The notes under the pieces were generated by a model that saw nothing but the letters and a program-made list of their open reading frames with translations, had not been told where the DNA came from and did no database searches. From a virus (Duplodnaviria > Caudoviricetes): a stretch of 62,811 bases of DNA. The DNA is taken from IMG/VR virus record IMGVR_UViG_3300038393_002510, positions 1 through 62,811 of that record. One strand, written 5' to 3'. This document shows positions 2,620 through 61,169 of this stretch, piece by piece (position 1 is the first letter of the stretch; each line of letters starts with the position of its first letter). The translations under genes were made by a program, and so were the position numbers.

Positions 2620-3303
2620 TCAGATGCCGAACTCGGTGAGGAAGCCCATGAAGGCCTCCGCGCCCTTCTTGCCGGTCTCGGCCTCGATCCGGGCCATGAA
2701 CGCCTTCACGCGCCGGCCGTCGGCGACCGACAGCTTGGAGAAGCCGAACACCTCGCCGAGCCGGGCCGGCGCGTCGTCCACGGCCGCGGCCTTGGCGGCG
2801 TTCTCGGTCTGCTGCTCCTGGACGGCCTCGCCGATGTCATCGACGAACGCCTCGTCCAGCATCTCGCCCGGGTCCTCGACCATGAAGTCGAGCTCCCGCT
2901 CGTCGAAGCCGAGGCTGCTCATCTCGATGCCGCCATCCTCGGCGAGCGCCGCGAGGCCCTGGCGCAGCAGGTCGGTGTCGACGTCGGTGTTGACCGCCTG
3001 GTTGTCGGAGAGCCGCAGCGCGTCGGCCTCGGCATCGGTGAGCCCCTTGAGCACGACGACCGGCACGGTGAGCATTCCCAGCTCGATCGCCGCCAGACGC
3101 CGGCCGTGGCCGTTGATGATCTCCTTGGTCTCGCCGCGCACGACGATCGGGTTCGTCCAGACGCCCCGGGCGCGGATGACGCCGGCGAGCTTCTTGGTCG
3201 TGGCCGGCGAGTGCTTCTTGGCGTTCTTGGCGTAGGGGACCAGGTCCGCGACCGGCCAGTGCTCCACGACCAGCTTCGAGAGGTCGATCTTAGGCGTCGT
3301 CAC
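2620..3303 (-). CDS. ParB/Srx N-terminal domain protein
   Basis: LVPYAKNAKKH, PIVV, IINGHGRRLAA, LSDN. Confidence 0.9.
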   Translation of the reverse strand: MTTPKIDLSKLVVEHWPVADLVPYAKNAKKHSPATTKKLAGVIRARGVWTNPIVVRGETKEIINGHGRRLAAIELGMLTVPVVVLKGLTDAEADALRLSDNQAVNTDVDTDLLRQGLAALAEDGGIEMSSLGFDERELDFMVEDPGEMLDEAFVDDIGEAVQEQQTENAAKAAAVDDAPARLGEVFGFSKLSVADGRRVKAFMARIEAETGKKGAEAFMGFLTEFGI

Positions 3304-3481
3304 GGGTCCACTCCCTCAGCATGCCGTAGAGGGCCGCCTCGCTGGGCTCCTCGTCGTCGATCTTGGGGTCGAAATTCTCCCCGGCCTTGCAGCCGAGGCA
3401 GGCCCGCACGAGCCGCGTCACGTCGCAGTGAGTGCATTCCCGGCACTCCGGGAAGCGCGGCTCGATGCGGATGCCGGTCAC
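3290..3481 (-). CDS. small Cys-rich protein
   Basis: CRECTHC...CLGC; overlaps both ParB-like genes. Confidence 0.6.
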   Translation of the reverse strand: MTGIRIEPRFPECRECTHCDVTRLVRACLGCKAGENFDPKIDDEEPSEAALYGMLREWTRDDA

Positions 3482-4206
3482 AGCGGCTCTCCGAAGGCAT
3501 CGTCTTCGGGGACGTCACCCTCGGAGCCTTCCTCCTCGGCGCCGGGCACGGGTGGCACGGCGGCGCCGAGGAGGAGGAAGCAGAGCGCGTCGCCCGCGTT
3601 CATCAGGGCGGTGCCGGCGTCAAAACCCTGGCGCTTGGCCGTGCGGGTGATGAGGTCGGTCAGGCGCTCCGCGTCGGCCAGCGGCACCTGAAAGCGCATC
3701 ATGGCGTGCGTCTTCGGGGCGGTGGCGACCGGGGTCTCGTGTTCCGTTGCGGTTTCGGACTCGGTCTCGTCTAAATCCAAGTCCTCCAGCGCTATAGTCG
3801 AAGACGAGAAGATCGACGTGAGCTCCTCGTCCGTGAAAGGCATGGTCTCCTGAAAGCCCTCGACGTCTCCCAGGCTCTTGAGCAGCAGCGCCAGCTCGCT
3901 GGCGTCGTCCTGCCCGTAGCGGGTGTTGTCGATCAGGCCGATCTTCTTGGCCTCGTCCTCGTCGATCGGGCCGAAGTTCAGCACCGGGACCAGGGGAAGA
4001 CCGAGATCGGTCGCGACCTTCCAGCGATGCTCGCCGCCCAGGATCTCCAGGCCGGTGTCGGTCTCGCGCACCAGGATCGGGCGCACGATGCCGCGCTGCC
4101 GGATGGAGGCGGTGAGCTTGGCCTCGTTGTCCGGCGCGACGTGGTTGGAGTTCCACGGGTTCGGCCGGAGCTCGGACGGCGCGATCTGGAGTGACTTGGG
4201 ATGCAT
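3478..4206 (-). CDS. ParB/Srx N-terminal domain protein
   Basis: LRPNPWNSN, PILVRE, ILGGEHRWKVA, DNTRYG. Confidence 0.9.
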   Translation of the reverse strand: MHPKSLQIAPSELRPNPWNSNHVAPDNEAKLTASIRQRGIVRPILVRETDTGLEILGGEHRWKVATDLGLPLVPVLNFGPIDEDEAKKIGLIDNTRYGQDDASELALLLKSLGDVEGFQETMPFTDEELTSIFSSSTIALEDLDLDETESETATEHETPVATAPKTHAMMRFQVPLADAERLTDLITRTAKRQGFDAGTALMNAGDALCFLLLGAAVPPVPGAEEEGSEGDVPEDDAFGEPL

Positions 4207-4270
4207 GGGAGGATGTGGTAAGTCAGCGCTTACTGACTTGTCAACGCCTCACAGGAGGAAAAAATCAGCC

Positions 4271-8138: not shown

Positions 8139-8251
8139 CTGTCTAACTCGCTTCTGTGTTGCTGACGATTACTTGTCGCACGCCCCCGACAGGGGGTCAA
8201 GTCACCGGTGACTTATCAACAGCGTGCGAGAAAATCGCATTAGCGCGTCGG

Positions 8252-8316
8252 TGAGACGCTTCGCGCGTCTCAGAGCTAGATCTGCTCACTGAGACGCTTC
8301 GCGCGTCTCAGTGAGC
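8252..8316 (-). terminator. two tandem hairpins downstream of the GG/CC-free gene
   Basis: TGAGACGC-TTCGC-GCGTCTCA (8252-8272) and a 14-bp perfect stem GCTCACTGAGACGC/GCGTCTCAGTGAGC (8284-8316); both are GG/CC-free. Confidence 0.7.
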
Positions 8317-8327
8317 TTGCTAGACGC

Positions 8328-8948
8328 TTAGAGCGCGACGCTCAGAGCTTTAGCTAGACGCTTCGTCGTTGCAGCGCTCAGATTGAGCGAATATGCAACT
8401 TCATTGCGTTCATCGCGCGTTTCTTTGAGAACGTCGAACATTTGCAGCGCGTTAATGCTGCTAGAGCTTTGCGTGTCAGCAGTATTCGCTGCAACAGTCT
8501 TAGCATAGCGCACGATATGTTGAGCTTTTGCAGCGTCAGCGCGCAGATCAACACACAGCGACGCTTGTGCATCTTTGTGCGTCATCGTCATGTTAGCTTT
8601 CGTGAGCTTAAGAGCAGTCAAGAAAATGCAGCGCGTGTAATTGTTGAGCGTATCAGCAGCAGCAGCAGAGCGCGCAATGTTAGCGACTTTCTGAGCGCTA
8701 TAGACGTTGAAGCGCTTGTTGCGACGCTCTTGACGATTGATAAAGTTAGCGTCGACGTTTGCGCTGTGCATAACTTTAACGACAGCTTCGTGAGAGAAAT
8801 CAATCGCGAGATTGTCGAGAGTCTTTTGAATGTTCGTGTTCTCAGCGTTGCACTCAATCTCATAAGACTTGCGAGCAGCGATCGACGTCTGAAGAGCGAC
8901 GCTGTAGTTCGCGACAGCTTCGTTCTGAGCGTTGTTGAGCTTCGTCAT
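8328..8948 (-). CDS. GG/CC-free gene; 206-aa putative winged-helix protein lacking Gly, Pro and Trp; paralog of 10253-11194
   Basis: ATG at 8948 (MTKLNNAQ...). Aligns with 10253-11194 (NIQKTL/NIHKTL, VDANFINR/VDPSFINR, FNVYSAQKVA/YNVYAVDKVA, TQSSS/TQASS, TKRL). Confidence 0.85.
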   Translation of the reverse strand: MTKLNNAQNEAVANYSVALQTSIAARKSYEIECNAENTNIQKTLDNLAIDFSHEAVVKVMHSANVDANFINRQERRNKRFNVYSAQKVANIARSAAAADTLNNYTRCIFLTALKLTKANMTMTHKDAQASLCVDLRADAAKAQHIVRYAKTVAANTADTQSSSSINALQMFDVLKETRDERNEVAYSLNLSAATTKRLAKALSVAL

Positions 8949-9249
8949 GACTGTGTCTCTCTGTGTGTGTGTTGCTGACGATTGAGAGAATACAGAGTCG
9001 GCAGATCGGCTCAAGAGCACAAAGCGAGAACAGAGCGAAAAAGTCAGCGGGAGGTGATTATTTTTGATGGGACGCACTTTCTCGTGCGGAGTGCGGAAAT
9101 GCCACTCGACGGGCGAGCGGAACTCCGTGGAGCCAGGATGGATTGTGCGCAATCGAATTGGGCACAACTCGATTGGGGTCAATTCAATTGGGGTCGATCG
9201 AATCACGCCCGATGGGCTCGGGCTCGATCGAGTCGTGCCCGACGCTTCC

Positions 9250-15517: not shown

Positions 15518-15828
15518 CAGCCCGCGATCTCCTCGGCCGCGTTCATGCCGTCGTTCCAGGTCAGCTCGGCGAAGAGGCCGGCCTCGGCCTCGGCGAGCGT
15601 GGGCGAGTGGTCGGTGCCGCCCATGTGCCAGCCCCACTCGAAGCGGCCGTCGATCTCGATGATGGCGACGGCCCACGTCTCATTGTTGCGCGTGAAGGCG
15701 TAGAGGTGCGGCACGGCGCGCGGCGCAGCCTTGGAGCCGACCAGGCCCTCGACCGTCATGTGCGTCAGCGCCTCGAAGTCAGAGGCGTCGAAGTGCTTGG
15801 AGGTGGCGCGGAAGTCTTCGATGTTCAT
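15517..15828 (-). CDS. hypothetical protein, first gene of the operon
   Basis: Start MNIEDFR; leader carries the TGTGTTGCTGACGA motif. Confidence 0.7.
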   Translation of the reverse strand: MNIEDFRATSKHFDASDFEALTHMTVEGLVGSKAAPRAVPHLYAFTRNNETWAVAIIEIDGRFEWGWHMGGTDHSPTLAEAEAGLFAELTWNDGMNAAEEIAG

Positions 15829-16016
15829 GTCGCTCTCGCGTCGCTGTGTTGCTGACGAGATCGACACTATCGACCCCATCAGCGCTTGTGCGCGGCAGCT
15901 TGTGGCATCTGAAATTCACGCTCAGAGCGTCTGTGAGCGTCGGGATCGCGCTCGCGTATGCGAGACAAGTGCGAGCGCATGAACGCGCTCACCGCTCAAT
16001 TCTCGCGATCCCTGCG

Positions 16017-25561: not shown

Positions 25562-25819
25562 CCGCCCTCTCCTTCTCTCGCTCGCTGAGTAAGTCAGCGC
25601 TGACTGATTATAGCGAAGCGCGCTCGGGTTTGACGAAGCGCCCTGCCTGATCGTCAGAAGGTGGCTGGGATCGCGTGCGCGCGTCGCTGAGACGCTTCAG
25701 CTTGCGCGCGCTGTCTGCGTCGCTCGCGCGCGTGCCGAGTCTGTGTGAGCGTCTGAGCGCATTCTAGCAGCGCGGCACTCGATCGCGCGAGCGTGCGCTG
25801 TCTGCAAGCGTTCATGCGG

Positions 25820-26020
25820 GCCTGTGGGCAGGCGGGCAGACCGGCATGCAGATAATTTCGGCGTCGCGGCTTGGCGGTTACAGACAGGTAACGATGGCTG
25901 TGCTGAAACCGAGGCAGGCGAGTCGGCTCGTGGGATTGTGGGCAGGCCCGCAGATCCACAGGCCCGCAGATCCGCAGGCGGGCGAACGGACACGAAGGCG
26001 AGACGACAGGCAGGAGTGCA
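25820..26020 (+). repeat. TGTGGGCAGGC-type repeats upstream of parA (operator/centromere)
   Basis: Copies at 25823 and 25937 plus CCGCAG repeats. Confidence 0.6.
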
Positions 26021-32817: not shown

Positions 32818-34515
32818 TCAGCCCTTGAGATTGCCCAGGGCGATGTGGCGCGCGAGGCTCTTGCGGCACATGCCCAGCGCCTTGTCGATCTGCCGGAGCG
32901 TGGCGCCCGCGCTGAGCATCTCCTGCGCCTTGTCGAGCTTGGCGCGATACTCGGGCGTGATCGTCTGGACCGGAGCCTCGGCGCGGCGCCCTTCCTTGAT
33001 CCGCGGGGCCGTCTTGACGTTCTGCGCCTGGGCGCTCGCCGACGGCTGCATCGGGACAGGGGAGGGCGGCGCCGGGCTCTGGGCGGGGATGTCCTCGGCC
33101 TTGGTGACGATCGCCTTGACCAGGGTGTTGTTGACCCCGAGCGAGCCGAACTGGACCGACTTCACCCGCACGCGGCTGGCGCGGCCGTCGTTCGAGACCC
33201 GCTCCACCGAATAGTCGCCGTCGGGGAGCTTGCTCGAACCCACGATCCGCACGATGTCGCCGGGCTTGGCGAGCTGCCAGGGCTCGGTGCCGGTCGGCTC
33301 GGTCTGCTGCGGGGCAGGGGAGGGGGCTGCCGTCACCGTCAGGCGATCAATCGAAACCCAGGCGCCGCTCACCAGCGCGGTGCCGCCGTCGACCGCAGCG
33401 ACCGGGACCGCCTTGCCCATGCCGTCGATCTTCACGAGCGCGTCCTTCACCAGGCCCGGCGCCACCTGCGGCTCATTCCCGGCCTGCACGTCGGTGACGG
33501 CCTGCTTGGCGTTGCGGATCGCCTTCTTGATCGTCTTCGGGTCGACCGCCTTGGGCTTCGACTTGATGACGCGCGCCTTGTTGCGCGGGGCCGTCACCTC
33601 GACCTTCTCCAGCACCTTGACCGTGTGCTCGCCCTGCCTGCCGACGAGGACCTCTTCGATCACGCCGATGTGCTGGCCGGCGATGACCTCGGCGACGACG
33701 CCCTTGGCGCCCTTCGCGGTGAGCGCCGAGCGCTTGGCCGAGACCGCCTCGTGCGAGCCCTGATCGAGCGCTGCCACGATGTGATAGGCGAGCACGCGCA
33801 TCTTGGACGACTCGTGGTGCGGGACCGCAACGACGTCCTCGGGCCGGACCTTCACGAGCAGGATGCGGTTGCCATACTGGCCGTAGGAGGCCGCGCAGAC
33901 GTGCAGGCCGGTGCCGCAGCTATCGCGGGTGTCGAGGTAGTCCTTCTTGTCCATGTAGACGCGCGAGCCGATCCGCTGGCGCACCTTCTTGGTGTGGTGA
34001 TCGACGTAGTAGCCCTCGTCGCTCGCGGCATCGAGGAACTTGTAGAGGACGAGACAGCCGTCGTCGGCGAGCGGCAGATCGACCTTCTCCATGAAGCGCA
34101 GCACCTCCTGGGCGGTGTCCTTGTGCTGCACCTTGGCGAAGCGCTCCAGGAACGCCGCGAGGCCGGGCGAGCCCTCGTAGGCCGCGCGCTCGATGTGCTC
34201 GGTGAGGGTCTGGGCGTTCTCCAGCTTGTCGCCGGCGGCCGTGGTCAGCGCGATCTTGGACACGCCGTCCTCGACCTTCTCCTCGACCTTCATGGCGCCG
34301 CCGGTCGCCTCCTGAATGATCTTCGCGAGGCTGAACTCCTCGAGGTCCACCTCGATGGGCTCGCCACCCGCGCTCGCCAGCGGCAGCAGCACCGCCTTGA
34401 GCAGATCGCCGGTGCGCCAGGAGTCCTGGCCGTAGACCGCGCTCTGCCCGGTCGGGAAGAAGAGGGTGATGCCGTTCTTCGACGCGATGGCGCCGGATAC
34501 CTTCGTGAGTGCCAT
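32818..34515 (-). CDS. rIIB: rIIB-like protein with C-terminal HTH
   Basis: LPLADDGCLVLYK, SCGTGLHV, LVKVRPEDVVAVP, KMRV..Y; directly follows rIIA. Confidence 0.85.
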   Translation of the reverse strand: MALTKVSGAIASKNGITLFFPTGQSAVYGQDSWRTGDLLKAVLLPLASAGGEPIEVDLEEFSLAKIIQEATGGAMKVEEKVEDGVSKIALTTAAGDKLENAQTLTEHIERAAYEGSPGLAAFLERFAKVQHKDTAQEVLRFMEKVDLPLADDGCLVLYKFLDAASDEGYYVDHHTKKVRQRIGSRVYMDKKDYLDTRDSCGTGLHVCAASYGQYGNRILLVKVRPEDVVAVPHHESSKMRVLAYHIVAALDQGSHEAVSAKRSALTAKGAKGVVAEVIAGQHIGVIEEVLVGRQGEHTVKVLEKVEVTAPRNKARVIKSKPKAVDPKTIKKAIRNAKQAVTDVQAGNEPQVAPGLVKDALVKIDGMGKAVPVAAVDGGTALVSGAWVSIDRLTVTAAPSPAPQQTEPTGTEPWQLAKPGDIVRIVGSSKLPDGDYSVERVSNDGRASRVRVKSVQFGSLGVNNTLVKAIVTKAEDIPAQSPAPPSPVPMQPSASAQAQNVKTAPRIKEGRRAEAPVQTITPEYRAKLDKAQEMLSAGATLRQIDKALGMCRKSLARHIALGNLKG

Positions 34516-40220: not shown

Positions 40221-40805
40221 ATGCGTGCCTATGCCTCTATTTCGCTTCTTGTAGTTATGTGGGCATTTCCAGCTCTGGCGGATTCACGACAATGCACTGT
40301 AGCCAAAGACAAAGGTAATGCTGCGGCATCAGAATATTATGACCCTCGCATAAAACAAGTTGATGATGCAATCCGGGATATAAAGGATAAGGGCGGCAAT
40401 CCAGATGATATCGCCATCAGGGTGGGCGACAAGTTTCTTACATTCCCCGAGATACGCGCCAAACTAGCCAAGGATAAACAGATTGCGCTCGCGGCAGTGA
40501 CTACGCAGATAGATGAGTGCGAAAAAGGGATGAAACCTTATCAAGATTTAGTGAACGAATATGCAAACTTAGCTACAGGTGGAGTATTAAAAATGCTGCC
40601 GGGGAAGATGGGGTTCATCGACGTCTCTGATATCCTTGCTGGTTATCCACTCGGTGGGCCTGATGCCTTCGTGCCAAAGGCCCGCGAGCAGATCCTAAAA
40701 GCTTTAGGAATGGGAGGGAAAAATAACACTGCTGGAAAAATTTTTAGAGATCCGATCAAAGAGGGTATCATTCGACCGATACAATGTATTTTCGGTTGTA
40801 AATAA
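40221..40805 (+). CDS. low-GC accessory (moron) secreted protein
   Basis: Signal peptide ending ALA; AT-rich codons; own AT-rich upstream region; opposite strand to its neighbours. Confidence 0.8.
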   Translation: MRAYASISLLVVMWAFPALADSRQCTVAKDKGNAAASEYYDPRIKQVDDAIRDIKDKGGNPDDIAIRVGDKFLTFPEIRAKLAKDKQIALAAVTTQIDECEKGMKPYQDLVNEYANLATGGVLKMLPGKMGFIDVSDILAGYPLGGPDAFVPKAREQILKALGMGGKNNTAGKIFRDPIKEGIIRPIQCIFGCK

Positions 40806-45632: not shown

Positions 45633-45904
45633 GACACGCGCACCCCGAGCGCCTGGAGCTTGTGGGTGAGGTCGGCGATCTGCACCTCGAGGTGGCGCTC
45701 CAGAGCCTCGGCCATGTCGTTGAGGAAGCCGCCGCGCGGACCCTGGCTCATGACGATATCGCCGCCTTCGCCCTTGAACTTCAGCTCGGCGTATTTGAGG
45801 TTCCTGCGGTTCGCCCGCAGAGCTTCCAACTTGTCCCGCAAGGACTTGCGGTGCTTGGTGTGCTCCCGGATATCCTCGATCTGATTTTCTGTTAAGTCGA
45901 TCAC
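45629..45904 (-). CDS. hypothetical coiled-coil protein
   Basis: Coupled ORF. Confidence 0.65.
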   Translation of the reverse strand: MIDLTENQIEDIREHTKHRKSLRDKLEALRANRRNLKYAELKFKGEGGDIVMSQGPRGGFLNDMAEALERHLEVQIADLTHKLQALGVRVS

Positions 45905-47841
45905 GCGAAAATCTCCTCAATAGTGGACGCGCCGCGTCCGGTCTTGGTCACTTTCATCACCTGGGGAACCCAATCCTTCAGATCACTATGCGAGATGATG
46001 AAGACGGTCCCGCGCTCGCGGGCCTTCTCCTGAAGGATCATGGTGAGCCGCTCGATGCCGGCCGGATCGAGGGCGTTGTCGATCTCGTCGCCGACGAACA
46101 GCGGGATCGGCTTCGAGGCGCGCGAGGCCACGAGGTCCTGGAGCGCGAGCGCTGCCGCGATGCGGACCTTGCGCTGCTCGCCGCCGGAGATCGCCGCGAA
46201 CTTGGAGCCGCCGAGCGCGTGCTCGACCTCGATGGCGAACTTCTCCTTCAGCTCACCGGCCTTGTTGCGGGTGAGCGTCGACCAGGTGGCCCGGATGTTC
46301 CCGTCCGAGAGGGTGCCGAGATACTTCGCCGTCTGGGCGTTGAGGTAGGGCGTCACCTCGTCGAGCATCTCCGCGCGGGCGCCAGCCGGCGCGAACACCT
46401 TGCAGACCTCCTCGGCGATCTCGAACTCGGTCTGCGCCGCCTCCAGCGCGGCCTGGGCCGCCTTGAGCAGGTCCTCCTTCTCGACCACCGACGCCTCGTG
46501 GCGCGCCTTGACGGCCGCGTAGGGGTTCTCCTTGGCCTGGAGCGCCTTGATCCGGTCGGCCTCGCGCCGCGTCTCGGCGGCCCGGGCTTCGATCCGGTCG
46601 GACTCGCGATCGTATGCCGCCAGAGATGCGCGTAATTGAGCGCTGAGCGCGTTCGTCGCGCTCGCGTCAGTCATGCTCGCGCGATGCGCTTCCAACGCTG
46701 TGCGCGCGTCTGTGAGCTTCGCAGAAGCGCTCATGTGATCGCGCTTCACGTCGCGCAGCGTCAGCAGCTCAGCACGCAGATCGGCCGCGGCCTTCTCCTT
46801 GGCCGGCGCGATGTCGGCGGCGGTGTAGGGCTTGGCGCAGGTGCCGCACGGACAGCCGACCTGGTGATCCATGTCGTCGTGGGTCGCCTTGAGGCGGCGC
46901 GCCCGGGCGCTGATCGTCTCGATGGAGTGATGGTGCGCGTCCACGAGGCGCTGGGCCTGGGCGACCTCCTGCACCAGCCGGCGCTCCTCGGCCTGCTCGC
47001 CCGCGAGACCGTTGAGCCGCGCGAAGGCGTCGGCGAGCTGGGCGTCCAGGGCGTTCCGGTCGGTCTTGGCGAGTTCGGCACGGGCCGCCTTCACCTCGGC
47101 GACCATCGCGCGGACGTTCGCGGTGAGCTGGTCGACTTCGAGCTTCCGCCCGGTCTCCCACTCGCTCATGTCGAGCTTGGCGTCCTCGACCTGGTTGCGC
47201 GCGGCGTCGAGCCAGCTCTGGGCGTTGGCGACACCCTGGTTGGTCGCTGCCACGAGGGCCTTCGCCTCGTTGCACTGCTGGAGCGCGACCTTGTGGCCCT
47301 TCTCCAGGACCGTCGTGCCGGCGGCCTCCTCGACGATCACCTTGAGGTTCTTGTCGGTCATGCCGGGCAGGTCCGGCATCTGGTCCTGACCCGCGAGGAC
47401 GGCCGAGACGAACACCTCCCGGCTCGCGCCGAGGATCTCGTTCACGAGGGCCTGCGTGAGCTTGTCGGTGCCCTTGGTCAGGTCGTGGGTGTCGCCGGCG
47501 GCGTCGAGCAGCAGGACGCGCAGGGCGTTCTTGCCGGTCTTGTGCTTCCGATGCCGGGCGATGGTGTAGACCAGGTCGCCGTCCTGGATCCGCGCGGCGA
47601 CGCGCGTGCCCTTCTTCGCCACCCAGTTGATAACGTCGTCGCCGCTGATGCCGCGGCTCGTCTCGCCGAACAGGCACCAGAACAGCCCGTCGGCGAAGGA
47701 GCTCTTGCCGGCGCCGTTACTGTCGGCCGACGTGTCGCATTCGTTGACGCCCTGGACCAGCACGAGCCCGCGGTCAGACATGCCGACCTTGGCGCTCGCG
47801 ATGGTGAGGAAGTTCTCGATCTCGAGGTCGAGGATCTTCAC
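45901..47841 (-). CDS. SbcC/Rad50-like SMC ATPase (gp46-like)
   Basis: NGAGKSS, zinc hook CGTC, SGGEQRK, VGDE, ISH; GTG start at 47841. Confidence 0.92.
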   Translation of the reverse strand: MKILDLEIENFLTIASAKVGMSDRGLVLVQGVNECDTSADSNGAGKSSFADGLFWCLFGETSRGISGDDVINWVAKKGTRVAARIQDGDLVYTIARHRKHKTGKNALRVLLLDAAGDTHDLTKGTDKLTQALVNEILGASREVFVSAVLAGQDQMPDLPGMTDKNLKVIVEEAAGTTVLEKGHKVALQQCNEAKALVAATNQGVANAQSWLDAARNQVEDAKLDMSEWETGRKLEVDQLTANVRAMVAEVKAARAELAKTDRNALDAQLADAFARLNGLAGEQAEERRLVQEVAQAQRLVDAHHHSIETISARARRLKATHDDMDHQVGCPCGTCAKPYTAADIAPAKEKAAADLRAELLTLRDVKRDHMSASAKLTDARTALEAHRASMTDASATNALSAQLRASLAAYDRESDRIEARAAETRREADRIKALQAKENPYAAVKARHEASVVEKEDLLKAAQAALEAAQTEFEIAEEVCKVFAPAGARAEMLDEVTPYLNAQTAKYLGTLSDGNIRATWSTLTRNKAGELKEKFAIEVEHALGGSKFAAISGGEQRKVRIAAALALQDLVASRASKPIPLFVGDEIDNALDPAGIERLTMILQEKARERGTVFIISHSDLKDWVPQVMKVTKTGRGASTIEEIFA

Positions 47842-48437: not shown

Positions 48438-49508
48438 TCACTCGGTAGCTGCGCGGACGGCGCTGATGATCGAGGCGGCCCGGGCCTTTACGGCGTCTTT
48501 GTGGGGTGAGCCCTGGCGCTCGACGTAGTCGGCGACCGACGCCTCGAGGCTCTTGGCCTTCACCGAGGCCGTGGTGCCGGTGCGGGCGCTCATGGTCTCG
48601 CGCTCGACGTTCATCACCACGCCCTTCGCCCCGAGCTTCACCAGCTCGTCGCGGAAGGCCGCTTCCTCGGCGTCGGTGAACTTGAGGCCGCGGACTCTCG
48701 CGTAGTTGCCGTCCACGATGTCGGCGATCAGATCCGGGTCAGTCTCGTCGGAGATCTCGACGAAGGACGGCGCGTGGCTCGCTCGGTAGACCACCTCGTT
48801 GTCGTGGACGATCAGGAAGCCGGCCCGGGTGCCGATGTCGCTGGCCGTCTGGTGCGTCGTGGCGCCGATCGACCACACCTTGCCATCCTCGAACGAGCAA
48901 TGGTGATGATAATGACCTGCGAACGTTCGCTTGAAGCCCAGGCTCGCGAGATAGGCCGGCGTCAGCCCATGCGCCGGCATACCCGATAGCACGCCGTCGA
49001 TGCCCGCGTGCATGATGAGGTCGGTCTGACCCAGGACGCCGCGGCGCACGGCCTCCTCGGCGAGCGCTTCGAGCACCGCCTTGAGGTCGTCGAGCTTCGG
49101 GATCCACGGCACCATCGCCAGCGGCAGGCTGTCGAGGAGCTTCGGCTGGGTGACGATGCCGAAGCCCTGCGTGCCCTTGAGCGACTGAAAGGCGTTTCCG
49201 AGCTCCGTGGTCTCATTCGACTTGAGGTCGTGGTTGCCCGGGATCGCGACGATCCGGTAGCCATCCCAGGTGAGGCCTTTGATGGTCTCGATCACCGGGT
49301 TGAACACCTCGGGGTCGATCGAGCCTCTCGTATGAAAAAGGTCGCCGGCGAAGGCGAGCGTGTCGCCGCCGGCAGCGCGCACCTCGGCCGCTGCCCGGTT
49401 GATCTCGTCCACGATGATCTGGAGCCGCGAGTTGCGGCCGCAGGGGAGGCGGGTCGAGAAGGCGCTCCACGCATGCGCGTGGATGTCGGAGAGGAGCCCG
49501 TAGGTCAT
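48438..49508 (-). CDS. SbcD/Mre11-like metallophosphoesterase nuclease (gp47-like)
   Basis: SDIH, AGDLFH, PGNHD, AGHYH. Confidence 0.92.
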   Translation of the reverse strand: MTYGLLSDIHAHAWSAFSTRLPCGRNSRLQIIVDEINRAAAEVRAAGGDTLAFAGDLFHTRGSIDPEVFNPVIETIKGLTWDGYRIVAIPGNHDLKSNETTELGNAFQSLKGTQGFGIVTQPKLLDSLPLAMVPWIPKLDDLKAVLEALAEEAVRRGVLGQTDLIMHAGIDGVLSGMPAHGLTPAYLASLGFKRTFAGHYHHHCSFEDGKVWSIGATTHQTASDIGTRAGFLIVHDNEVVYRASHAPSFVEISDETDPDLIADIVDGNYARVRGLKFTDAEEAAFRDELVKLGAKGVVMNVERETMSARTGTTASVKAKSLEASVADYVERQGSPHKDAVKARAASIISAVRAATE

Positions 49509-50407
49509 CAGGCCAGGTAGCCCGAGAGGTCGACGCCCTGCACCTTCGGGCCGACCTTGTTGTTGAGGTAGAGACCGCCCTTCCGGTAGCGCTCGAAGGT
49601 CGCGACCGTCTTATTCATCAGCTCCAGGGTGCGGCTGTTTCCGCTCTTGCCGCGCACCGTGCGGGTGATGAGGTCGTGGAGCGCCTGGACGCCGTCGCAG
49701 TGCGTGGACGTCTTCTGGCCGGCGTTCGCGTTATAGGCGCCCAGGAACTTGAGCGCGTCGGCCTTGTCCTTGCGCAGGATGATGACCGCGCCGGCGATTA
49801 CGCCGACCGGGAACAGCCGGGCGTTCGGGTCCAACTCGTCGAGGGCGACCAGCTCATCCCGGAAGGTCTCCAGGTTCCGGTAGATGTCGGCGACTTCCGG
49901 GCCGAGCAGGCGCGAGGCCATGCGCAGGGCGGCGGCGAACTTGTAGCGGCGCAGGTGGCTGCTCTTGAACTCCACCGCGGCCTGGCGAGCCGCGCCGGAC
50001 AGCTTGTCGGCCGTCGTCTCGACAGCGGAGGCGTTGTCGAAGTGGGTGTAGAGCTCCAGGAGGTCGGCGAAGGTGTCGACCATGTAGATGTGGGCGGCGA
50101 CGTTCTTGGGCGCCTTCAGCTCACCCTTGCCCCACAGGAACGCCCGGGTGTGGCCGTCGAGCTTATACTGCCGGCCCATGTAGCTCGCGACGTGGACGAC
50201 GGCGTGCGTCGGCGAGGGCTGCGCCAGGTGCTTCTTCTTCGCCATCTCGGCGTGCCGCGCGGTGTCGCGCTGCCGGGGATGATCCTCCAGCATCATGAAC
50301 TCGGCGATCGACATCGAGGTGTGCGTGCGCTTCACGCGGTCGACGAGGTCCGGATCCTTCGGGGCAGGGCGCGCGGCGACGGAGGCGGTGGCGATTGCGA
50401 CTTGCAT
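49508..50407 (-). CDS. hypothetical protein, possibly a divergent ParB/DGQHR-like domain
   Basis: HPRQR...LDGHTR...FDN. Confidence 0.6.
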   Translation of the reverse strand: MQVAIATASVAARPAPKDPDLVDRVKRTHTSMSIAEFMMLEDHPRQRDTARHAEMAKKKHLAQPSPTHAVVHVASYMGRQYKLDGHTRAFLWGKGELKAPKNVAAHIYMVDTFADLLELYTHFDNASAVETTADKLSGAARQAAVEFKSSHLRRYKFAAALRMASRLLGPEVADIYRNLETFRDELVALDELDPNARLFPVGVIAGAVIILRKDKADALKFLGAYNANAGQKTSTHCDGVQALHDLITRTVRGKSGNSRTLELMNKTVATFERYRKGGLYLNNKVGPKVQGVDLSGYLA

Positions 50408-54415: not shown

Positions 54416-54476
54416 AAAGGGCGCCAGCCCGTGAGACTGGCGCCCTGTGAGAGGGAAGGGCGCGTGCGCCCTCCCT
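54416..54476 (-). terminator. tandem hairpins downstream of the SSB gene
   Basis: AGGGCGCCAG/CTGGCGCCCT and AGGGCGC/GCGCCCT. Confidence 0.6.
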
Positions 54477-56262: not shown

Positions 56263-56541
56263 TCAGACCCGCGGCGGCCATGACCAGGTGCCCGGCTGAT
56301 CCGGGCCACCCTCACGCACGCTCATCTCCGGCACGAATGCCCGTCCGGGCGCGAAGACGTGGAGCGAGAGCAGATCGGAGCCGTCGCTGCCCTCGAACAC
56401 GCCCGAGACCAGGGCCGCGAACGGCTGCGGGATCTTCGCGGCCTCGCTGGGCAGCGGGTGGTAGTGGACGATGCGACCGATGCCGGGGCGCACCTTCAGG
56501 GGCGGCGCGAGGCGGCCCTCGATAGAGGTGGGTGGGTTCAC
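56263..56541 (-). CDS. hypothetical phage protein
   Basis: PGIGRIVHY...AALV...LHVF...GTWSWPPRV; GAGG RBS. Confidence 0.75.
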   Translation of the reverse strand: MNPPTSIEGRLAPPLKVRPGIGRIVHYHPLPSEAAKIPQPFAALVSGVFEGSDGSDLLSLHVFAPGRAFVPEMSVREGGPDQPGTWSWPPRV

Positions 56542-57450: not shown

Positions 57451-60400
57451 TCACTCCGTCAGCGACGCCGCGACCTCGAACACCTCGTTGAGCTTCGCCT
57501 GCTTGGACGCCTCGTGGAAGATCTCGCCTGGGGCGAAGCCGATCACGAGGTTGGCGTCGAGCTCCTTGTGGTAGACCACCTCGCCCGCGACCTCGGACGC
57601 CTTGCCCTTGAAGTCGGGGATGAACTGGCGAACCGTGGTCGAGCCGAGCAGCACGATCACCGGCGGCTTGAGGATCTCGATCTCGCGCTGGAGATATGGT
57701 GCGTAGGTCGCGATCTCGGACGCCGAGACCTGCTTGCCGGCCTTGGGCCGCTTGATGAGCGCGGTCCAGTAGGCGTCGGCCCGCGAGAGGTCGTTGGCGT
57801 CGAGCGCCTCCTGGACCCACTCGCTGACGCAGTAGCTGCCGCGGTTGTCGTAGCTCATGCGCCCGGACGCATCCTCACCCTTCGAGGGCGCGTCGAGGAT
57901 CACCATGAAGCGCATGTTCTTGCCGGTGGTCATCTTCACCGGCATGCCGTCCTCGGCGCAGCCGTCCGAGTAGTCGGCGAACACCTCCAGGATCTTGATC
58001 CGGCTGTCCCGGTCCTTGTGCATCTCCCGGTTGATCGGAACGTGCGCCGTGATGAGGCCCGGGATCAGCTCGCGCTGGTCCTTGATCCGGTCGGGGTGCC
58101 GGCGATGGAGCTGACCCGGCTCGATGTCGGCGAAGGCACCGACCAGGTCGAGGAGCCCGACGTGCTTGACGTTGCAGCGGCGCCGCTCGACCCGCTCGGA
58201 CAGGTTGGCCTTGGACGTGAACGGCCCCTGCCCGTCGTTCCGCGCCTTCAGGATCGCCTCCGTGGTCAGCGCCGAGATACCCTTGATCCGGTTGAAGGGC
58301 ATGCAGAGGCGCGTGTCGGTCACGATCTCGAACTGGCCCGTGGAGTGGTTGATGTCGGGCAGATCAACCTCGATGCCGAGCCGCTCGGCGTCCTTCATCA
58401 GGCCCGGCAGCTTGTCCTGGGGCATCAGCGACAGGGCGGCTGCGAAGAACTCCACCGGGTAATGGGTCTTGAGATACATCGCCTGATAAGAAATCAAGGT
58501 GTATTCTACGGAGTGACTCTTGTTGAACCCGTATCCAGCGAAGCCTTCGATCTTGTCGAACAACTGTCCGGCCCATTCCGGCGTGCATTCGACTGTCTTG
58601 ATGCAGCCGTTTACGAACTTGCCGCGCTCCTTTGCCATTTCCTCGGGGAGCTTCTTGCCCATGATCTTGCGGAGCTTGTCGGCGTCCGCGCCCGAGTAGC
58701 CGGCGATAACCTGGGAGGCCTTCATGACCTGCTCCTGGTAGACGAACACGCCGTAGGTGGGCGCCAGGACCGGCTCCAGGAGCGGGTGGTCGTAGTCCAC
58801 GCTCTCGTGGCCCTGCTTCCGCTTCCAGTAGCTGTCCATCATGCCCGACTCCATCGGGCCTGGCCGGTAGAGCGCGGTCGCGGCCGTGATGTCGTCGAAG
58901 GTAATCGTGCCGTCGCGCCCGAGCTCCTTAAGAAGTCGGCGCATACCGCCGCCCTCGAACTGAAATATTCCGGTCGAGATCGCGCGGGCGAAGTTGTCGA
59001 GCACCTTCGGCTCATCGAGCGGGATCCGCAGCAGGTCGACCTTCTTGCCGCGCCGCTTGCGGATGTAGTCGAGGGTGAGCGCGATCAGGTCGAGGGTGTT
59101 GAGGCCCAGGATGTCCATCTTCACGAGGCCCTGGTCCTCGACGATGCGCTTGTCCCAGCACACCACCGGCAGATCCGGCACCGGCTCCTCGCCTTCCTTG
59201 GGCTTGGCCGGGGCCTTGCGCCGCTCGATCACCGCGCGCTCGACCAGGTCGACGCCGCCCACGACGACGCCGGCGGCGTGCTGCGAGAGGTTGCGGAGCG
59301 TGCCTTCCAGCTTCTCGGCCGTGTCCCAGATCTCCGGGTTCGCGCTCTTGAAGGCGGCGATCTCGGAGACCTCCTCGGCCGCGACCGTCAGCTTGACCGG
59401 CTGGCCGTGCTTCTTCGGCACGAACTTCGAGCAGCGGTAGAGCTCCTCGTTGAGCCCGAACACGCGCGACACGTCGCGGATCGCCGATGAGGCGCCCAGA
59501 CGCCCGTAGTTCGAGACGCCGGCCACGCGCGCCGTCCCATACTTGCGGATGAGATACTGGAACACCTCGTGCCGGCGCTCGGACATGAAGTCGAGGTCGG
59601 CGTCGGGAAGGTCGATACGCTCGGGGTTGATGAAGCGCTCGAACAGAAGACCGAAGCGGATCGGGTCGCAGTCGGTGATCCCCATCAGGTAAGCGACGAG
59701 TGAGCCACCCACGGAGCCGCGGCCCGGGCCGACCAGGATGCCCTGGCTCTTGGCCCACACGACCACGTCCTGCACGAGGAGGAAGTAGCCCGAGAAGTTG
59801 AGGTTCTTGAGCACGGACAGCTCGTAGCGCAGCCGCGGCTCGTAGACCGCCTTCAGCTCGTCCATGTCGGGCCGGTGCCCGAACACCTCCGCCGTGAAGC
59901 GCTCCTTCCAGCCGACCTTGCAGGCGGCCACCACAGCCGCGAACTCGTTGGGCGCCATGACCGGCAGCGAGGGCGCCGACTTCACCCAGGCGAACGTGAC
60001 CATGTCGACGAGGCGCGCGGTGTTCTTGAGGCCTTCCGAGAAGCGGCCCTTGGTCGGCACGCCCCGGTATTCCTCGAGCCGCTTGGCCGCGGCCTTCACG
60101 TCGCGCACCAGCTCGGGCAGGGTCTTCGGGTGCAGGTCGCGCACCGCGTTGAACCACGCCCAGGGCTCGGTGAGCTTCACGTTGCGGGTGACGGCGTTCA
60201 TGATGTCGGCCGCGTCCGCGGAGCCTTCCTCGTAGAGGGCAGGGGCCGCGACCAGCGTCGGCAGGCCGAGCTCCTCGGCGAGCGCCAGCGCCTTGACGTT
60301 CTGCGTGTCCCAGTAGGGCGTGTCGACCGGCACCAGCGTGCAGAACGTATTAGACGCGCTCAGAGCGTCGGAAATCTTGCGTAGTATCTGAGACGCTGAC

Positions 60401-60855
60401 TTGTGCGAAACGACGCTGTGCGCGTCGCTTGTCGCAATCGCGACGTCTGCCGCAGTGACGTTCGCAAGCTCTGCATAGAGATCATCGAACGCGAGCTTGG
60501 GGACGTTGTAGAAACGGTCCTCGGAGTTGGCGAGCGAGAGCAGCCGGTAGAGCGCCATGAGCCCGGTCTGCGACAGCACATACCAGGTCACGAAGAACTC
60601 CGGCGGCGCCTTCTTGCTCTCCTTGGTCTTGCGCCAGGTGACGTCGTCCACGAGCCGTAAGCGGCAGCCGATGACCGGCTTGATGCCGGCCTTCTGCGCC
60701 TTCTGGGTCAGCTCGATCAACGCGGTGCACGACATCGTGTCGGTGATGCCGACCGCCTTCGCGCCGGCCCCGGCCGCGCGGTCGACGAGCTTGTCGATGG
60801 CGAGGATCGACTCGCCGATGCTGAAGTTCGACCGTGCGGCCAGGATCGCGTGCAT
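57451..60855 (-). CDS. dnaE: DNA polymerase III alpha with C-terminal uracil-DNA-glycosylase-like domain
   Basis: PHP N-terminus, GPGRGSVGGS, PDADLD, KMDILGL, GIFQFE, GYGFNKSH; C-terminal ILDAP..GED..G, ALIKR, EIEILKPPVIVLLG. Confidence 0.95.
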   Translation of the reverse strand: MHAILAARSNFSIGESILAIDKLVDRAAGAGAKAVGITDTMSCTALIELTQKAQKAGIKPVIGCRLRLVDDVTWRKTKESKKAPPEFFVTWYVLSQTGLMALYRLLSLANSEDRFYNVPKLAFDDLYAELANVTAADVAIATSDAHSVVSHKSASQILRKISDALSASNTFCTLVPVDTPYWDTQNVKALALAEELGLPTLVAAPALYEEGSADAADIMNAVTRNVKLTEPWAWFNAVRDLHPKTLPELVRDVKAAAKRLEEYRGVPTKGRFSEGLKNTARLVDMVTFAWVKSAPSLPVMAPNEFAAVVAACKVGWKERFTAEVFGHRPDMDELKAVYEPRLRYELSVLKNLNFSGYFLLVQDVVVWAKSQGILVGPGRGSVGGSLVAYLMGITDCDPIRFGLLFERFINPERIDLPDADLDFMSERRHEVFQYLIRKYGTARVAGVSNYGRLGASSAIRDVSRVFGLNEELYRCSKFVPKKHGQPVKLTVAAEEVSEIAAFKSANPEIWDTAEKLEGTLRNLSQHAAGVVVGGVDLVERAVIERRKAPAKPKEGEEPVPDLPVVCWDKRIVEDQGLVKMDILGLNTLDLIALTLDYIRKRRGKKVDLLRIPLDEPKVLDNFARAISTGIFQFEGGGMRRLLKELGRDGTITFDDITAATALYRPGPMESGMMDSYWKRKQGHESVDYDHPLLEPVLAPTYGVFVYQEQVMKASQVIAGYSGADADKLRKIMGKKLPEEMAKERGKFVNGCIKTVECTPEWAGQLFDKIEGFAGYGFNKSHSVEYTLISYQAMYLKTHYPVEFFAAALSLMPQDKLPGLMKDAERLGIEVDLPDINHSTGQFEIVTDTRLCMPFNRIKGISALTTEAILKARNDGQGPFTSKANLSERVERRRCNVKHVGLLDLVGAFADIEPGQLHRRHPDRIKDQRELIPGLITAHVPINREMHKDRDSRIKILEVFADYSDGCAEDGMPVKMTTGKNMRFMVILDAPSKGEDASGRMSYDNRGSYCVSEWVQEALDANDLSRADAYWTALIKRPKAGKQVSASEIATYAPYLQREIEILKPPVIVLLGSTTVRQFIPDFKGKASEVAGEVVYHKELDANLVIGFAPGEIFHEASKQAKLNEVFEVAASLTE

Positions 60856-60863
60856 GTTGAGGA

Positions 60864-61169
60864 TCAGCCTTCCAGGGCGCGCCAGTTGATGATGCGGACG
60901 TTCTTGAGCTGCTTCTGCTCGGTGATGACCTGCTCGACCTTCAGCAGGGCATCGAGGGTGCGCAGGTCGGCGAGACCGTCGACCCACATGCGGTCATGGC
61001 GATCGAAGCCGTCGGCGTCCTCGTGGACGAAGGCCACGAACGTGCGCCGGGGCGGGGTTTCGATGGGCTGGCCCGGCTGCACCGGCTCCAGGGTCTCGGC
61101 TTCGGCGCGCGCCTTGGCGGCGTCGAGGCGCTGCTGACGCCGGTTCGTCTTCGGGGTCTCGTCGGTCAT
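60864..61169 (-). CDS. hypothetical protein
   Basis: GAGG RBS; start MTDETPK. Confidence 0.65.
   Translation of the reverse strand: MTDETPKTNRRQQRLDAAKARAEAETLEPVQPGQPIETPPRRTFVAFVHEDADGFDRHDRMWVDGLADLRTLDALLKVEQVITEQKQLKNVRIINWRALEG

Follow-up and report, generated by a model that had tools for sequence, protein, structure and literature searches.

Why should about 160 bp inside a phage gene that is otherwise full of GG and CC contain almost none of either dinucleotide? The question is raised by the SbcC-like gene of IMGVR_UViG_3300038393_002510, an IMG/VR virus record of 62,811 bases (about 67% GC, with a CheckV completeness estimate of 56%), the whole of which we refer to as the window. 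A preliminary description of the window had pointed out the island, which we call tract D (Table 1), and had proposed that it is a cis-acting window of unmodified DNA overlaid on a tolerant coiled coil. Our analysis indicates that tract D is almost certainly a nucleotide-level element under selection, and that it is one of a class of GG/CC-poor tracts.

A conserved GG/CC-depleted tract in sbcC

The only GG/CC between 46621 and 46782 is a CC at 46692-46693, and there is no GG at all, while the window as a whole contains 11,380 GG/CC, with a median of 30 per 160 bases. Tract D begins about 20 codons downstream of the CPCGTC zinc hook, in the coiled coil, and its translation, DLRAELLTLRDVKRDHMSASAKLTDARTALEAHRASMTDASATNALSAQLRASL, bears out the earlier statement that the peptide lacks glycine, proline and tryptophan (G, P and W). 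The codons singled out in the preliminary description are rare indeed: in 14 other genes of the window, GCT makes up 7% of the codons for its amino acid, TCT 3.7%, ACA 3.0%, CGT 4.9% and TTA 0.8%, and other codons are similarly scarce (TTG 2.3%, ACT 3.5%, GCA 5.7%). The GC content at third codon positions is 0.70 in tract D and 0.94 in the remainder of the gene. As a control, we resampled the same 54 codons synonymously 200,000 times, using the window's own codon usage. The samples had a mean of 26.0 GG/CC (standard deviation 4.0, minimum 11), and none of them had one or fewer, so the depletion lies outside the range of codon-shuffled sequences.

Among IMG/VR orthologs, the four closest (57-82% identity by tblastn) have the tract at the same place, as does Pseudomonas phage nickie, whose SbcC is 39.4% identical to the window protein by tblastn and 42% identical in the alignment. 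Rhizobium phage RHEph10 has a weaker tract, and Rhizobium phage V1VFA-S has none. We extended the resampling to the aligned 54 codons of 83 orthologs, including the window and some near-duplicates, with 2,000 synonymous resamples drawn from each gene's own usage. For 24 of the 83, nickie and RHEph10 among them, at most one resample was as low as the observed count, and for 27 at most six were. The SSU5-like sbcC genes and that of V1VFA-S have ordinary GG/CC there. In a midpoint-rooted FastTree phylogeny of the 75 distinct SbcC orthologs, with purged rows defined by z <= -3.2, 20 of the 21 purged rows fall into one half of 37 rows (nickie, RHEph10-like and Methylobacterium-type), and one falls into the SSU5-like half of 38 rows. 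A subclade of 10 rows around V1VFA-S has no strongly purged row, with L082 and L068 weakly depleted. Because the root is a midpoint root, an ancestral tract with losses and several independent gains are both possible histories; whichever holds, the sbcC tract has persisted over branch lengths of more than one change per site.

These results leave a negligible probability that the tract has no function, whether as chance, as a by-product of amino-acid and codon usage, or as a recent recombination tract from a donor. A segment without G, P or W does lose all in-frame GGN, CCN and TGG codons, but 26 GG/CC would still be expected given the peptide. Unpurged orthologs carry 0-5 G, P or W residues in the aligned segment, and those with none (V1VFA-S, L091 and L083) nevertheless hold 15-17 GG/CC. 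A recent transfer is contradicted by orthologs that have diverged by more than one substitution per site and yet carry the tract at corresponding codons.

What has been conserved is composition, not sequence. Where amino acids are identical between the window and an ortholog, the same codon is used in 38 of 46 cases in the tract of L056 (0.83) and in 102 of 128 elsewhere in the coiled coil (0.78-0.80 outside the tract); the corresponding figures are 26 of 38 (0.68) and 60 of 87 (0.69-0.76) for L058, and 17 of 27 (0.63) and 37 of 58 (0.64-0.70) for L059. In other words, synonymous sites in the tract drift at the usual rate while the tract stays free of GG/CC, which argues against a binding motif, a promoter or an RNA structure. 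The extra synonymous conservation of an operator, iteron or parS-type site was seen in none of the three orthologs. Rfam gave no match at gathering thresholds over the whole window, and a scan of 46300-47100 found no sigma-70 promoter-like and no terminator-like site, promoters of phage-specific sigma factors being outside its scope. The predicted folding of tract D is ordinary in comparison with shuffles (z of -1.2 for the sense and -0.8 for the antisense strand). Repeats within the five tracts of the window are limited to short low-complexity ones in D and E, the motif CTGAGACGCTT has 21 matches where 22.6 are expected, and the palindromes CGCTCWGAGCG and GCTCTSAGAGC proved neither specific to tracts nor universal. 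A k-mer enrichment across tracts was dominated by artefacts and yielded no common motif, with only a modest excess of AGCGTC and CACAG. The word ATGAC(T/A)GA is invariant in the tract, but it encodes M390, T391 and D392, which are invariant in all seven aligned sequences, so that conservation of the protein accounts for it. Depletion in the tracts extends to each of the 16 NGGN contexts, with 280 sites in 15.6 kb and context ratios of 0.43-2.2 against the remaining DNA.

Words of 14-23 nt are common to tracts within one genome, some of them on opposite strands. Examples are 46634-46654 in tract D and 15981-16001 in tract B of the window (20 of 21 positions, opposite strand), 95887-95906 in the sbcC tract and 56407-56426 in an intergenic tract of the relative G003 (20 of 20, same strand), and the dnaE tract and a tract at 662-830 of nickie (17 of 18). 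These matches carry no control against GG/CC-free shuffles, and we set them aside as evidence. A candidate boundary motif, GGGAAG, noticed by eye at several tract starts in nickie, was rejected as it is not general in other genomes.

Related tracts and the GG/CC-free early gene

We compared the observed and expected longest gaps for the ten strand-symmetric dinucleotide classes in seven genomes. GG/CC is the only class with giant gaps, in six of the seven genomes; the preliminary description had suggested such a dinucleotide scan. The longest GG/CC gap is 750 bp in the window (51 expected), 1137 bp in nickie (73), 1531 bp in G003 (59), 1279 bp in V1VFA-S (70) and 549 bp in RHEph10 (70). It is smaller in G002 (197 bp, 58 expected) because the module there is partly relaxed, and the gap of 154 bp in SSU5 (84 expected) falls in AT-rich sequence that does not resemble a genuine tract. 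In the partly relaxed module of G002 (94901-97305), relaxation has occurred almost only to CACC(G/A) on the mRNA strand, at sites about 80-160 bp apart. In the complete genomes the tracts are confined to the early and replication part, with none in the blocks of structural genes. Elsewhere in tract-bearing genomes GG/CC has a frequency of 0.13-0.18 per base, that is, one every 5-8 bases or so. Both strands are purged, in coding and in non-coding DNA, and about 450 bp of the nickie tract is non-coding. Tract E, in the polymerase gene, has 5 GG/CC where 20.3 are expected, with none of 20,000 synonymous resamples as low, and G002, G003 and nickie have a tract at the corresponding position of dnaE. 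Along the replication module of nickie, the secondary tracts (at 54425, 65517, 75151, 85526 and 97915 of the nickie record) follow one another at intervals of about 10-12 kb; other genomes are less regular.

The largest tract of the window, tract A, begins about 20 bp upstream of an inferred transcription start and extends through two terminator-like hairpins; it holds gene A, whose inferred promoter is TTGAGC-N16-TATTCT. The leader motif TCGTCAGCAACACA of gene A has exact 14-nt copies at 8155-8168 and at 15845-15858 on the minus strand, making three in the window, each 16-19 nt upstream of an ATG codon; at up to two mismatches there are 6 matches where 0.36 are expected. These leaders have GAGAG in place of a GG-type Shine-Dalgarno sequence and look like a class of early leaders without one. 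The large tract of G003 contains three GG/CC-free open reading frames (ORFs) behind sigma-70-like promoters, with a leader TTGTCAGCA(A/C)CACAGAGAG that occurs twice there and, as the same motif, three times in the window.

We retrieved 51 sequences of the gene A family, including the window's own, at 41-100% identity. No G, P or W is present in 34 of the 51; none of the 51 has a W, and none has more than three G or more than three P. The gene contains 0-6 GG/CC at 10 of the 13 IMG/VR loci that belong to the family and 15 at one, the others being a fully relaxed gene in the G004 lineage (66 GG/CC in 606 bp) and a distant paralog-like copy with 54. Gene A has no PHROG match, its Pfam matches are all below threshold, and the Atlas clusters it falls in are labelled only 'hypothetical'. 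An AlphaFold model of the protein, built from 44 sequences, is confident (pLDDT 92, pTM 0.88), and residues 90-205 or so of the model align to winged-helix DNA-binding domains (MarR, ArsR, PadR, Fur and the linker-histone globular domain) with Z of 7-8 over 72-95 residues. A Foldseek search of the PDB gave no match at E <= 0.001 and weak rows of the winged-helix kind, and a comparison with BFVD gave two uncharacterised viral proteins. The predicted winged helix may serve as a lead at the level of fold only.

The preliminary description had tied the island to this gene, and the tie stands in that the two are members of a single class of tracts co-occurring in the phage lineage; the modelled fold provides a lead on the protein. 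The complete 112.8-kb genome G005 has no family A gene, a longest GG/CC gap of 65 and no sbcC tract, while G006 has gene A within a 693-bp tract, yet no sbcC tract. Neither BLASTP nor hhalign detected any similarity to family A in the large-tract genes of nickie (gp019) and RHEph10 (gp097), and the GG/CC-free property therefore appears to belong to the locus and not to one protein family, barring similarity beyond detection. Of two scans of genome contigs, the first found no locus and the second found one, in Faunimonas pinastri.

Possible readers of GG and CC

We propose that the tracts are avoidance windows, at the level of the DNA duplex, for a putative GG/CC-reading activity. This reading is close to the idea of the preliminary description without the modification part, and we hold it tentatively, at somewhat less than an even chance. 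A trans-acting factor would modify, nick or coat the DNA, or block its transcription, at any GG/CC that it meets, and the phage would retain a few stretches that are invisible to it. The extreme member of the class is a whole early transcription unit without any GG/CC. In sbcC, the coiled coil past the zinc hook tolerates rare codons and the lack of Gly, Pro and Trp, and we assume that the 160-bp blind spot could give a protein or polymerase access to the DNA, or serve to evade the block. The purging of both GG and CC, in coding and non-coding DNA, would be expected from a factor that reads the GG/CC step in duplex DNA, and the joint absence of the large tract and the sbcC tract from G005 supports the proposal. 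A wider version is possible but doubtful: the phages would carry or face an undescribed factor that acts on essentially every duplex GG/CC step, for host takeover or genome protection, with exemption conferred by sequence and not by chemistry. One early operon would be GG/CC-free, its proteins thus lacking glycine, proline and tryptophan, and the windows of about 160 bp at fixed codons of dnaE and sbcC would be access points.

A search for the putative factor has not provided a candidate. Among the 88 ORFs of G003 compared with Pfam at E <= 1e-4, about half of which have no match at all, there was no methyltransferase, TGT/DpdA or glycosyltransferase, and no suitable nuclease or RNase. The presence or absence of 165 G003 ORFs across eight genomes likewise gave no modification or nuclease candidate, singling out only RepC, a lysozyme and small unknown ORFs. 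Of the earlier idea of unmodified DNA, what stands is a selected nucleotide-level feature on a tolerant coiled coil; the modification itself finds no base-modifying family in either comparison. A protein of nickie labelled 'DNA methyltransferase' has as its counterpart in the window a ParB_N-only protein in which no methyltransferase domain was seen. Literal phrase searches of the literature for GG-free DNA, with supplements left aside, returned nothing relevant, and none of the papers listed for phage nickie is about composition.

The lack of a reader in these Pfam and gene-content comparisons is one of several observations that weigh against the avoidance of a duplex reader. Gene A of the G004 lineage has regained its GG/CC, and no use has been demonstrated for a 160-bp blind spot in a gene that is otherwise GG/CC-rich. 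The sbcC tract is dispensable in some lineages, with V1VFA-S and G006 keeping the large tract only. Most purged sbcC orthologs keep a central GG (TTGGAA, or GGGAC in RHEph10-like genes), for which we have found no explanation. Finally, CC has been regained before GG on the mRNA strand of gene A, with 1 GG to 17 CC in the mildly relaxed copies (L136, L139, L140 and L145), which could point to a reader of RNA.

That avoidance acts on RNA is, in our view, unlikely. The reader would be one of transcripts, such as a GG-cutting endoribonuclease, the anti-Shine-Dalgarno sequence or another GG-binding factor; the gene A mRNA would be immune, and the sbcC and dnaE tracts would correspond to short stretches of sense or antisense RNA that persist or remain free. 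This would agree with the coincidence of the 750-bp tract with one transcription unit, with the GAGAG that genes in and beside tracts have in place of a GG-containing Shine-Dalgarno sequence, and with the near absence of regained GG, which in the G002 module amounts to 3 GG to 19 CC on the mRNA strand. However, a fully relaxed copy of gene A has 17 GG to 49 CC, so the bias is mostly explained by codon opportunity, there being more openings for CC than for GG in frame because the protein lacks Gly, Pro and Trp. Relative to the relaxed homolog, a rough binomial estimate gives p of about 0.03 for the four genes and no significance for the G002 module, and we regard the asymmetry in gene A as marginal. 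In the sbcC tract, 74 GG and 46 CC remain over the 24 orthologs, many of the GG coming from the conserved central site. A single RNA reader leaves unexplained why CC is purged as fully as GG in most tracts. The tract A unit has no GG/CC from about -20 to its terminators, as a motif-less mRNA would; the sbcC and dnaE mRNAs are GG/CC-rich outside their tracts, so the tracts confer no immunity on them. Tract D is bounded by no promoter or terminator and folds in an ordinary way, the words common to tracts are uncontrolled as noted above, and no RNase family is among the Pfam matches of G003.

A positive role for the tracts is also conceivable, if rather improbable: a protein that binds or polymerises only on GG/CC-free DNA would cover them as roadblocks or marks, the candidate being the winged-helix-like product of gene A, which would be autoregulated. 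The confident model with its winged-helix matches is in favour of this, and in the genomes examined secondary tracts exist only where there is a large tract with such a gene, G005 having neither and SSU5 having no tract; in a genome of 57-68% GC, a long GG/CC-free stretch would be an almost unique address. Yet a Z of 7-8 is within the range that this aligner gives for common arrangements, and a fold is not a function. The large-tract genes of nickie and RHEph10 do not detectably resemble family A, V1VFA-S and G006 have gene A without an sbcC tract, an unpurged paralog of gene A exists, and one lineage keeps an intact gene A, with its invariant TQSSSS motif, though its DNA has regained GG/CC. 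Nor does CRISPR offer more than a very improbable explanation, by which stretches free of protospacer adjacent motifs (PAMs) would escape acquisition and targeting. Type I-F systems (CC) and NGG-type Cas9 systems both have GG/CC as their PAM, which, read on duplex DNA, is exactly that of I-F. According to a 2025 report, Pseudomonas aeruginosa phages targeted by I-F have mildly fewer CC, especially around protospacers (PMC12174588). In the order of the host Faunimonas pinastri, however, to which our sample was limited, the I-F marker Csy3 (PF09615) is present in 4 of 301 genomes, and with GG/CC every 5-8 bases elsewhere the phage would be fully targetable, so that a local purge gives no obvious protection.

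The tracts share features with several known systems. Restriction-site avoidance and PAM depletion, the latter exemplified by CC for type I-F in the same report (PMC12174588), are alike in that selection at the nucleotide level eliminates a short motif at a cost in codon choice. Known cases of such avoidance are genome-wide and partial, whereas the tracts are local and nearly total, at conserved codons, with normal GG/CC density elsewhere. In the first-step-transfer DNA of phage T5, which has no EcoRI sites, and in the early region of T7 with gene 0.3, DNA that has to function ahead of any protection is kept free of a target motif. Tract A resembles them as an early transcription unit, but their motifs are 6 bp long and read by a known host restriction enzyme, while the motif here is 2 bp, its reader is putative, and replication and repair genes contain small tracts of their own. 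Transcripts that lack the cleavage motif resist mRNA interferases (ACA-less for MazF, GCU-less for MqsR), and RegB of T4 cuts GGAG. Tract A is similar in that a whole transcript lacks the motif and the GG of the Shine-Dalgarno sequence is replaced; it differs in that GG and CC are both absent and non-coding DNA is included, and the sbcC mRNA is not motif-free. Sites acting in cis are found within coding regions in the lambda origin in gene O and in the pac sites of P22 gene 3 and SPP1 gene 1. Like tract D, these are DNA-level elements over a tolerant protein segment, but they are specific sequences (iterons, pac boxes), while tract D drifts freely at synonymous sites and keeps only its composition. 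The chlorella virus enzymes Nt.CviPII and M.CviPII (CCD), and Alc of T4 with hydroxymethylcytosine, read signals of 1-3 bases in nearly all host DNA with the virus exempt. Their exemption is by base modification of the whole genome; in the tracts, if the analogy holds, it would be by sequence avoidance, and no homolog was detected.

Were the tracts indeed avoidance windows of this kind, selection on a single dinucleotide would shape whole genes and fixed spots in essential genes, and would persist over a divergence of more than one substitution per site. The trans-acting reader would have a two-base specificity undescribed for bacteria or their phages, and long GG/CC-free gaps would be a genomic signature for the targets of such readers and for early "immune" genes. 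Even with a known reader, the complete absence of a dinucleotide at kilobase scale would be a striking case of motif avoidance. As the group has cultivable members (nickie, RHEph10 and V1VFA-S), the question is directly testable.

Source element and gene context

The named phages nearest to the window by tblastn are the Rhizobium phages RHEph10, V1VFA-S and B1VFA and Pseudomonas phage nickie, with SSU5-like phage-plasmids more distant, and homologs of one window protein are sourced to Methylorubrum extorquens and Methylobacterium assemblies. The complete 117.7-kb relative G003 encodes RepC, ParA and two ParB_N proteins. From these genes and the hosts of the relatives, we take the element to be a phage-plasmid of an SSU5-related lineage with hosts in Methylobacterium, Rhizobium and Pseudomonas. 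The genes of the window lie nearly all on the minus strand and include a replication and recombination module named by PHROG, with a helicase, two ParB-like proteins, rIIA, rIIB, ribonucleotide reductase, SbcD, SbcC, a UvsX/RecA-like recombinase, an exonuclease, a gp32-like single-stranded DNA-binding protein and a DnaE-type polymerase. The translation of the gene that hosts tract D contains the motifs GAGKS, CPCGTC, SGGE and DEID, and the ortholog in G003 matches Pfam AAA_23/SMC_N; with its Walker and signature halves, coiled coil, CxxC zinc hook and SbcD neighbour, the product can be classed, as far as its sequence tells, as an SbcC/Rad50-type SMC-like ATPase.

Table 1. Tracts, genes and motifs of the window discussed in the text.
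Feature	Positions	Strand	Description
Tract A	8251..9000		750 bp, zero GG/CC, GC 0.51
Two copies of 22-nt hairpin TGAGACGCTTCGCGCGTCTCAG	8252..8311	-	Downstream of gene A
Gene A	8328..8948	-	206 aa, no Gly, Pro or Trp
Leader motif TCGTCAGCAACACA	8968..8981	-	19 nt upstream of gene A ATG
Tract B	15806..16009		GG/CC-poor, intergenic, with leader motif, upstream of gene starting at 15828
Tract C	25642..25833		GG/CC-poor, intergenic, with TGCTAGAAT (extended -10-like) on minus strand
SbcC/Rad50-like ATPase gene	45901..47841	-	646 codons and stop; start inferred from 646-aa orthologs; PHROG_77, E 3.5e-113
Tract D	46621..46782		GG/CC-purged, 1 GG/CC in 162 bp; codons 354-407 of SbcC-like gene
Zinc-hook codons CPCGTC	46837..46854	-	Residues 330-335; C332 and C335 invariant in 7/7 aligned orthologs
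SbcD-like nuclease gene	48438..49610	-	Beside sbcC; stop-to-stop frame; PHROG_100, E 2.3e-57
DNA polymerase III alpha (DnaE-type) gene	57451..60993	-	Stop-to-stop frame; PHROG_405, E 9e-294; tblastn to phage DnaE genes
Tract E	60333..60500		GG/CC-poor, inside DnaE-type polymerase gene

Several further features were noted in passing. The DnaE-type polymerase of G003 (L031 5775-9179) has a C-terminal domain of the UDG superfamily (Pfam PF03167, E 3.5e-9). In the window, two ParB_N-only proteins (2620-3315 and 3478-4248, both on the minus strand) adjoin a ResIII/DEAD helicase. ARAGORN called a 94-nt tRNA-Arg (anticodon GCG) at 33335-33428 on the minus strand, within the rIIB-like frame; it is probably either spurious or an unusual insertion. 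An ORF of 194 aa at 40221-40805 on the plus strand, with 50% GC, is flanked by the genes for thymidylate synthase and ribonucleotide reductase; its N-terminus resembles a signal peptide (MRAYASISLLVVMWAFPALA), and it may be an acquired moron gene.

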